A DNA stretch of 10,361 nucleotides from a virus (IMGVR_UViG_2563366976_000003:1-10361); one strand, 5' to 3'. Shown: positions 4,444 through 5,150, numbered from the stretch's first letter. Notes: a model not told the origin generated them from the letters alone. Numbers and translations: made by a program.

Positions 4444-4680
4444 AGAAAGCCCCTCCGGAGAGGGGCTAAAGCCGCGTATCTGTATCATCATGCACATGGT
4501 GCCGGGTGCCTCCCGGTGAGTTCAGCCCGGTGCCACTAAACCCGCGTCATTCTCGTTTTGATAATCAGAGATTATACCGTCACCAGTCGCCCCTCCGCTC
4601 AGGGGGATTCACCATGCGAAATTTTTTTAACAAATGCCCAGTCTGACAGGCAACTGTCAACTTACTGAATTGTGAGCAAC
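4444..4680. repeat. copy A of an approximately 230-bp structured direct repeat
   Basis: Shares four conserved blocks with copy B: hairpin agcccctc-cgga-gaggggct (4448-4467); atggtgccgggtgcctcccggtga; gcccctccgcNcagggggattcaccatgc; ctgaattgtgag. The core between blocks differs from copy B. Confidence 0.7.
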
Positions 4681-4715
4681 ATAGCATTTAACGGGGAACC
4701 TGTTTTCTGCAGTAA

Positions 4716-4925
4716 AAAGGCCCACCGGAGCGGATGGGCCTGGAAGGATAGCGGTCATGTGATGCCGGTTTCCCGGTAACTCAGCACCGGTATCTGAGTC
4801 AACGTTTTCTCTACTGGGTCATTTCCGATACGCCCTGCCTGCTGACAGGCTTTCATCACATCTGAAAATATAGCACCCTGACTGATACTGTAGTACCTAA
4901 GGTTCCAGAAACTGTGATGTATCCG
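4716..4925. repeat. degenerate third copy of the same repeat unit
   Basis: Hairpin ggccca-ccggagcgga-tgggcc (4719-4740) sits at the position of block 1 with a different stem sequence; a block-2-like gtgatgccggtttcccggtaactcagcaccggt and a block-3-like gccctgcctgctgacaggctttcatcacat follow in the same order. Confidence 0.45.
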
Positions 4926-4930
4926 GCACA

Positions 4931-5150
4931 GAAAAGCCCCTCCGGAGAGGGGCTGGAGAGTGGCGCTATGTGCCATTGCATGGTGCCGGGTGCCTCCCGG
5001 TGAATTCAGTACCAGCACCTGAATCCGCGATTATCCCATATACCTACTCGCTGATTGCCCCTCCGCACAGGGGGATTCACCATGCCAGTTTCTTTTAACA
5101 AACTCCCCGCAAACCAGACAACAGTCAACCGCCTGAATTGTGAGACATTT
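4931..5150. repeat. copy B of the approximately 230-bp structured direct repeat
   Basis: Same four blocks as copy A, including an identical hairpin at 4935-4954 and the atggtg...caccat long-range complementarity. Confidence 0.7.

Follow-up and report, generated by a model that had tools for sequence, protein, structure and literature searches.

The window, by which is meant the whole stretch of 10,361 nucleotides that was analysed, is the late region of an Escherichia coli lambdoid prophage. It carries Q, an Stk/PP2C pair, three tRNAs, an array of three related units in the order B-C-A, a sialate esterase gene and lysis genes. In the identical VR50 locus, the late-strand order given by RefSeq is DUF968, RusA, antiterminator Q, Ser/Thr kinase, PP2C phosphatase, a methylase remnant, tRNA-Ile/Arg/Arg, a blank stretch, SASA esterase, holin, YdfR, lysozyme and Rz. 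The kinase and phosphatase genes (5926-7505, minus strand) lie directly downstream of Q and form a moron that precedes the tRNAs. The remnant of a truncated DNA methyltransferase is found at about 5489-5776, and the tRNA cluster (Ile2/Met-CAT, Arg-TCG and Arg-TCT) occupies 5190-5439 on the minus strand. The tRNA at 5364-5439 (minus strand) is called Met (CAT) by ARAGORN and tRNA-Ile (ileZ) in RefSeq and in the Sakai homologue; it is presumably read as Ile after lysidine modification. A terminator-like hairpin at 5150-5175 (minus strand), identified by the terminator and tRNA scans, closes the cluster and sets the upstream boundary of the array. Two further minus-strand hairpins are seen downstream. 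One (CTGCGCAACTGCGCGG then TCTTTTT, 4324-4339) is located between A and the esterase gene, within the region antisense to a plus-strand sRNA candidate described below, and its conservation extends to Sp5 and the Stx2a phage. The other, a hairpin followed by a T-run (AGCCATCAGTACTTAACTGGTGGCTTTTTTT, about 2245-2275), is located between the esterase stop codon and the holin gene.

The array itself was delineated by repeat search, terminator scan and a covariance model. Units A and B have three blocks in common: 88 nt at 80% identity (4589-4676 and 5057-5144), 31 nt at 97% identity (4495-4525 and 4979-5009) and a 22-nt terminator hairpin block that is identical in the two (4446-4467 and 4933-4954). 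The hairpin block also has a weaker relative, at 4716-4737. Tandem Repeats Finder did not report the B-C-A array because the units differ by indels, and for the same reason both the repeat search and the covariance model were needed to see it. Minus-strand GC hairpins followed by T-runs end each of the units, at 4467-4448, 4741-4718 and 4954-4935, and the 2-kb region has 12 terminator-like sites compared with 1.9 +/- 1.4 in shuffled sequences. The initial annotation had described three tandem structured repeats, the middle one weaker, with conserved blocks in A and B and with a GC hairpin and T-tract at the late-strand end of each, and all of these features were recovered.

Units A and B are ordinary STnc100 genes. 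The Rfam STnc100 model (RF02076, gathering score 47 bits) matches A at 4437-4646 (minus strand, 165.4 bits, E 4e-38) and B at 4924-5114 (minus strand, 136.3 bits, E 1.2e-30), in both cases full length over model positions 1-206. In the fold, an 8-bp closing helix, GCAUGGUG/CACCAUGC, surrounds three hairpins together with V1, a variable segment; V2, also variable and mostly single-stranded, separates this domain from the terminator. With the Rfam match and helix mapping combined, unit A, a full STnc100-family sRNA gene, spans 4440-4686 on the minus strand. Its leader (~4672 to 4618) is followed by the closing helix (4615-4610 with 4501-4496, from the Rfam consensus), hairpin 1 (4606-4601/4596-4590), V1, hairpin P3 (4543-4537/4524-4518), hairpin P4 (4514-4512/4506-4504), V2 (~4495-4468) and the terminator (4467-4448, then UUUCUU). 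Unit B, likewise a full gene of the family, spans 4929-5144 on the minus strand. It has a conserved leader of roughly 60 nt (5086-5141), the closing helix (5083-5078 with 4985-4980, again from the Rfam consensus), hairpin 1 (5074-5069/5064-5058) with V1 next to it, P3 (5026-5020/5008-5002), P4 (4998-4996/4990-4988), V2 (~4979-4955) and the terminator (4954-4935, then UUUUCU). The atggtg and caccat segments, which had been predicted from the sequence to pair across the unit, are about 108 nt apart in A and B and correspond to the Rfam closing helix. The U-tracts of both terminators are interrupted, which may weaken termination and Hfq binding.

Each copy was also folded alone, as the initial annotation had suggested. 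The minimum-energy fold of B is the family structure (z = -2.2), and this is also true of C (below). The minimum-energy fold of A is an alternative to the family fold (z = -1.4), so the expected structure was obtained for two of the three copies. In A and B the terminator hairpin nearly repeats the sequence of hairpin 1 (CCCCU..AGGGG; 4446-4467 and 4933-4954 versus 4589-4610 and 5054-5075), and the two can exchange partners. Unit A folds alternatively because its hairpin 1 can pair with the near-identical terminator sequence.

Unit C (4712-4875, minus strand), defined by a sub-threshold Rfam match and by its fold, is a diverged paralogue lacking the 5' leader. It matches the STnc100 model full length at 4712-4885 with 30.1 bits (E 1.6e-4 in a 951-nt search at a permissive threshold) and is absent from the scan at the 47-bit gathering threshold. 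Since its score is below 47 bits, like that of PasD at 38-41 bits, C is classed as a structural relative and not as a curated member. Its closing helix, AUGUGAUG/CAUCACAU, pairs 4859-4854 with 4764-4759 and encloses hairpin 1 (4850-4845/4839-4833), P3 (4801-4795/4783-4777) and P4 (4773-4771/4768-4767). The terminator (4741-4718, then UUUU) occupies the corresponding position in the unit, with a sequence that differs from those of A and B. Thus all three units have the organization that marks the superfamily, a closing helix around hairpin 1, P3 and P4, then a single-stranded stretch and an intrinsic terminator, and they lie where the superfamily lies, in the late moron slot that follows Q and precedes the esterase and lysis genes.

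The helices of C are maintained by different base pairs. The core of the closing helix reads GUGAUG/CAUCAC, with double changes from G-C to A-U and from A-U to G-C. A variant of C from another prophage, C', is 91% identical to it and differs mainly in hairpin 1, where the stem is CCUGUC/GGCAGG in C and UCUGCC/GGCGGA in C'. This stem is retained through one compensatory change (C-G to U-A) and one wobble-to-Watson-Crick change. Folded alone, C takes the family architecture as the minimum-energy structure, and z is -2.6 in both C and C'. By its own fold and the compensatory changes in C and C', C is a structural member of the STnc100/PasD superfamily.

A doubtful reading, although one that several features invite, is that only A and B are functional and that C is a decaying duplicate without a function of its own. 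The score of C falls below the cut-off, the 60-nt leader of A and B is missing, just two sequence variants of the C type were found, and in the 17 arrays of the sampled loci C occurs only between two other units and never alone; C-type copies were mid-array wherever checked. Decay does not fit well with the retention of all the family helices, including the double changes in the closing helix and the additional one in hairpin 1, nor with a fold that is more stable than that of shuffled sequences in both variants. A possible extended -10 element, TGcTATATT, is identical in C and C' despite 9% sequence difference, and the C type is found in 673 of 5426 complete E. coli genomes, about 12%. A score under the cut-off is also found for PasD, a proven sRNA.

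Paired regions of the family are conserved and covary across prophage homologues, as the search of Rfam and of other prophages showed. Viral contigs scanned for the conserved 5' block yielded 120 loci, from which 79 unique units were extracted and 21 representatives of <88% identity were chosen. An alignment of 23 sequences, in which the representatives were aligned with A, B, C, C' and PasD2, was analysed with RNAalifold, and the Rfam architecture was recovered with 95.6% of the cells paired. The number of pairs changed on both sides is 13, compared with 5.5 +/- 1.5 in shuffled alignments (0 of 500 reach 13) and with at most 7 after the partners are shifted by 1-3 columns. The double changes in the closing helix, A-U to G-C and G-C to A-U, come from C and C'. 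Two short contigs also contain the conserved 5' block exactly, an 888-bp contig assigned to Xanthomonas pisi (L138) and a 2.9-kb contig of a proteobacterial MAG (L130); these are probably enterobacterial contamination rather than evidence of true hosts.

An HMM built from the same alignment was used to count units at 121 loci. One unit is present at 103 loci, two at 3, three at 14 and four at 1. A C-type unit stands in the middle of 13 of the 14 triples, either as B-C-A or as X-C'-Y; the remaining triple (L039) has its third unit about 1.8 kb further on. Escherichia albertii has a pair of units 467 nt apart. The variable segments assort with each other. Among 58 units there are 12 types of V1 and 10 types of V2, several V1 types each occur with several V2 types, and the two commonest types of each occur in all four combinations. 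One locus (L089) has the V1 of copy A together with the V2 of copy B. V1 ranges from 24 to 45 nt in length, with no multiple-of-three rule. The mixed V1/V2 combinations point to recombination within the conserved scaffold.

The array is made up of three probable sRNA genes, head to tail, of a catalogued prophage family, STnc100, kin of EcOnc27 and PasD. Tree et al. (2014) described convergent pairs of Hfq-bound sRNAs between a moron and a conserved downstream ORF in lambdoid prophages; the pair in Sp5 consists of EcOnc27 in sense and AsxR in antisense orientation. EcOnc27 was recovered by Hfq CRAC, is seen in northern blots at about 235/247 nt, and its 247-nt form is destabilised without Hfq (PMC4104026). 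In the fetched Sp5 sequence, the EcOnc27 probe matches V2 of the STnc100 unit downstream of stx2B. The Sakai coordinates of EcOnc27 and AsxR in Table S2 of that paper are about 137 nt lower than those of NC_002695.2, as checked by the position of AsxR, and without correction this offset places the Hfq peak on the wrong part of EcOnc27. The corrected CRAC peak covers V2 and the terminator, and a location of Hfq on the 5' leader of EcOnc27 was therefore rejected.

Units A and B, full length and above the cut-off, have the same fold as STnc100/EcOnc27 (sRNA103 of the Stx2 phages of EHEC). The genomic slot is also the same, between a moron and a nanS-p-type esterase gene and convergent with an antisense sRNA. 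In contrast to the STnc100 unit of Stx phages, the present locus has three tandem units and no stx genes, and V2 of A and B is unlike V2 of EcOnc27, so their targets should differ. EDL933 transcribes eleven STnc100 copies, all far apart and none adjacent, and one of them, STnc100_4, was seen by northern blot (PMC5331693).

PasD1 and PasD2 of EPEC are Hfq-dependent RNAs of 172-173 nt with RIL-seq targets and a UGUGAG seed in V2 just before the terminator (PMC8550237). A preprint (bioRxiv 10.64898/2026.05.13.724894) reports that PasD and STnc100 are structural relatives. Scores of 41 and 38 bits for PasD with RF02076, both under the cut-off, confirm this kinship. PasD1/PasD2 (EcOnc13, EPEC E2348/69) and the units have in common GCAUGGUGAAUCC, hairpin 1, P3 and the closing helix, and PasD2 has the same neighbours as the array, Q upstream and a sialate esterase downstream. 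PasD differs in having no 60-nt leader, its own V1 and V2 (the latter with the UGUGAG seed) and a different terminator. Identification of C, or of A and B, as PasD at the sequence level was rejected, since the alignment shares the scaffold blocks only. A PasA homologue was sought between the esterase and holin genes and was not found, unlike in EPEC. According to the same preprint, PasA and PasD occur in copies that are mutually distant and are not tandem duplicates; the tandem layout seen here is thus a modest addition.

A fourth candidate sRNA is encoded on the plus strand, where promoter and terminator scans outline an RNA of about 4244-4436 whose 3' end abuts the 3' end of A. It has a promoter-like -35 (ATGCCA, 4208-4213) and -10 (GATAAT, 4231-4236), a CCUUGCC sequence at 4403-4409 and a strong terminator at 4408-4436. 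The promoter-like elements (4208-4236) overlap the start codon and ribosome binding site of the esterase gene. The region 4190-4445 is 95% identical to an EPEC RIL-seq sRNA candidate, E2348C_1409.E2348C_1408.IGR, with EHEC homologues EcOnc08/21/42. The RIL-seq partners of the EPEC candidate include the cfa and dppA 5'UTRs, and its seed is CCUUGCC. In Rfam the plus-strand RNA has only a weak OmrA-B-like match of 25 bits. The anti-sRNAs AgvB and AsxR resemble the units in occupying the moron slot, in being Hfq-bound and in combining a conserved part with a variable targeting part, but they measure 51-60 nt, are encoded on the opposite strand and are unrelated in sequence. Neither RF02702 (AgvB) nor RF02703 (AsxR) has a match within 4250-5200 at E up to 10, and the published AsxR sequence is unrelated to the plus-strand partner, which was therefore rejected as either of the two.

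Paralogous sRNA genes that lie side by side, have separate promoters and terminators and combine conserved with divergent parts are familiar from OmrA/OmrB, PrrF1/PrrF2 and the Qrr sRNAs. These belong to unrelated families with other folds, and they are core genes of the chromosome, not prophage morons.

The array lies at a position taken by toxin genes in Stx phages. The Stx2a phage Stx2_95 has the order tRNAs, stx2A, stx2B, one unit and the esterase, and its stx2B-nanS-p (stx2B-yjhS) spacer is matched at 92% identity by unit A with its flank as far as the start of the esterase gene. By this orthology, B and C occupy the place of stx2AB. The late region as a whole is built like that of an Stx2 phage, with a methylase, the ileZ-argN-argO tRNAs, a moron, an sRNA pair and a nanS-p-type esterase. 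A 901-nt region recurs at 100% identity in many E. coli chromosomes; of 5426 complete genomes, 2907 match some part of it and 353 have at least 80% of it. The exact array is present in about 6.5% of complete E. coli genomes and a C-type copy in about 12%, ExPEC, APEC and the type strain being among the carriers; E. coli VR50, ML35 and ATCC 11775 (DSM 30083) are examples of strains with this exact prophage.

The ends of the RNAs can be placed by analogy with these relatives. The 5' end of PasD2, from RNA-seq, is the G of GCAUGGUG, and the homologous positions are G4617 in A, G5085 in B and G4862 in C. A conserved leader of about 60 nt starting (C)UCACAAUUCAG is present in A, B and the Stx-phage units and is absent from C. 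Just upstream of it is a -10-like hexamer, TTAAAT in B (5152-5147) and TGTAAT in Sp5, or a possible extended -10 in A, TGcTATGTT (4686-4678); the elements of A and B are weak. With the leader and these -10 positions, the RNAs would be about 233 nt (A), 213 nt (B) and 230 nt (Sp5), fitting the 235/247 nt of EcOnc27. The 5' end of B would be at about 5141 if B behaves like EcOnc27, or at G5085 if it behaves like PasD. In C, the TGcTATATT element (4875-4867) is directly before the closing helix and there is no leader, so that an RNA of about 150 nt, from ~4862 to ~4713, would be expected. The best placement of the RNA bodies is ~4440-4672 for A, ~4712-4862 for C and ~4929-5141 for B. A scan with the sigma-70 consensus found no minus-strand promoter, and for this reason the minus-strand promoters are still hypotheses; they and the 5' ends of A, B and C are putative assignments by analogy.

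The most probable interpretation is that B, C and A are three independent, head-to-tail sRNA genes of the STnc100/EcOnc27/PasD type, placed in the moron slot, with the phage tRNA cluster on one side and the esterase and lysis genes on the other, and acting in trans through Hfq. Family membership, covarying structure, terminators, genomic context and orthology to the Stx-phage unit were all obtained in this analysis. Each unit would possess a separate weak or extended -10 promoter, besides its intrinsic terminator, and should give rise to a discrete transcript in the lysogen, about 150 nt for C and about 215-235 nt for B and A. After induction, the Q-modified polymerase would read through all three terminators. 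From the tested relatives, the RNAs would be expected to bind Hfq via V2, the terminator and the U-tail, and to pair in trans, through their variable segments, with mRNAs or sRNAs, host as well as accessory ones. Since A, B and C differ in both V1 and V2, different sets of targets are expected. Hfq dependence, trans action and targets are thus predictions for these units, modelled on their homologues. The initial annotation had raised tandem small-RNA genes or, alternatively, cis-regulatory structures in the late transcript. The first is supported by two curated STnc100 members and a structural relative whose homologues are discrete, Hfq-associated RNAs, and the 200-250 nt that had been forecast fit A and B. 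As to the second, a cis role of the terminators is possible as a side effect and is not needed.

An improbable version of the cis role makes it the principal one. The units would then be a stack of intrinsic terminators and structured spacers that keeps read-through from tRNA/moron promoters out of the esterase and lysis genes in the lysogen and is ignored by the Q-modified polymerase after induction, with the short RNAs as by-products. Four successive late-strand terminator-like hairpins do lie between the tRNAs and the esterase gene, and the array is directly upstream of the lysis cassette; at the 103 of 121 loci with one unit, that unit is evidently enough. However, insulation leaves unexplained the covarying closing helix and internal hairpins, the reassorting hypervariable V1 and V2, and the Hfq binding and many trans partners of the homologues. 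There is very little to recommend another cis or trans role, in which the 5' hairpin region UGAAUCCCCCUG.GCGG serves as an anti-Shine-Dalgarno sequence for the esterase initiation region CCGCCCGGGAGGAUUCAUG (4230-4212), either in a read-through transcript or in trans. The two are complementary at 14 of 17 bases (4595-4611 or 5063-5079 versus 4214-4230, found as inverted repeats I4 and I5), and both the esterase initiation region and the sRNA 5' block are present in Sp5. On the other hand, 6-14% of other 50-nt windows in the same window pair equally well or better, the PasD2/esterase pairing is not kept in EPEC, the accessible part of the PasD supplement contains no PasD2-esterase chimera, and the segment is sequestered in the closing helix and hairpin 1.

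That the repeats are coding remnants, or encode small proteins on the opposite strand, is hardly credible: an SD-like GGGGGA with an ATG does occur at 4613 and 5082 (plus strand), from the reverse complement of the conserved 5' block, the ORF 4506-4646 (plus strand) has a YmjE-like Pfam match (E 0.052) and RefSeq/PGAP gives a partial 'hypothetical protein' pseudogene fragment at 4970-5095, but the YmjE-like match has 14 bits against a 27-bit cut-off with nothing else in Pfam or NCBIfam, the antisense ORFs of A and B run in different frames over the same conserved motif, those started by ATG have 10 and 34 codons and are not conserved, and V1 lengths ignore multiples of three while substitutions keep base pairs instead. 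The ORFs predicted here had been judged spurious from the start and the units not decayed coding sequence, and this opinion stands; there is no family match in Pfam or NCBIfam and no conserved frame by which the copies could be fragments of a known protein gene or insertion sequence.

Returning to the three sRNA genes, a wider proposal can be made tentatively. The array might act as a cassette platform, one scaffold presenting two hypervariable targeting segments, V1 and V2, which prophages would exchange through recombination in the conserved blocks. B-C-A might then give non-Stx ExPEC and commensals three regulators with different targets in the toxin slot, and the C type might be a third, uncatalogued subfamily beside STnc100 and PasD.

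The novelty is modest and is confined to the tandem layout, a three-gene array in the stx slot, the diverged sub-threshold unit C and the reassortment of V1 and V2; the current understanding of the STnc100 family is unchanged. In the annotation, RefSeq is blank or has a pseudo 'hypothetical protein' over 700 nt that contain three likely sRNA genes, with a fourth opposite. If the targets of the units are distinct, the array would represent an unstudied means by which prophages control host physiology in strains without Shiga toxin. The reassortment of its variable segments would offer a convenient system, provided by nature, for following the evolution of sRNA target specificity.
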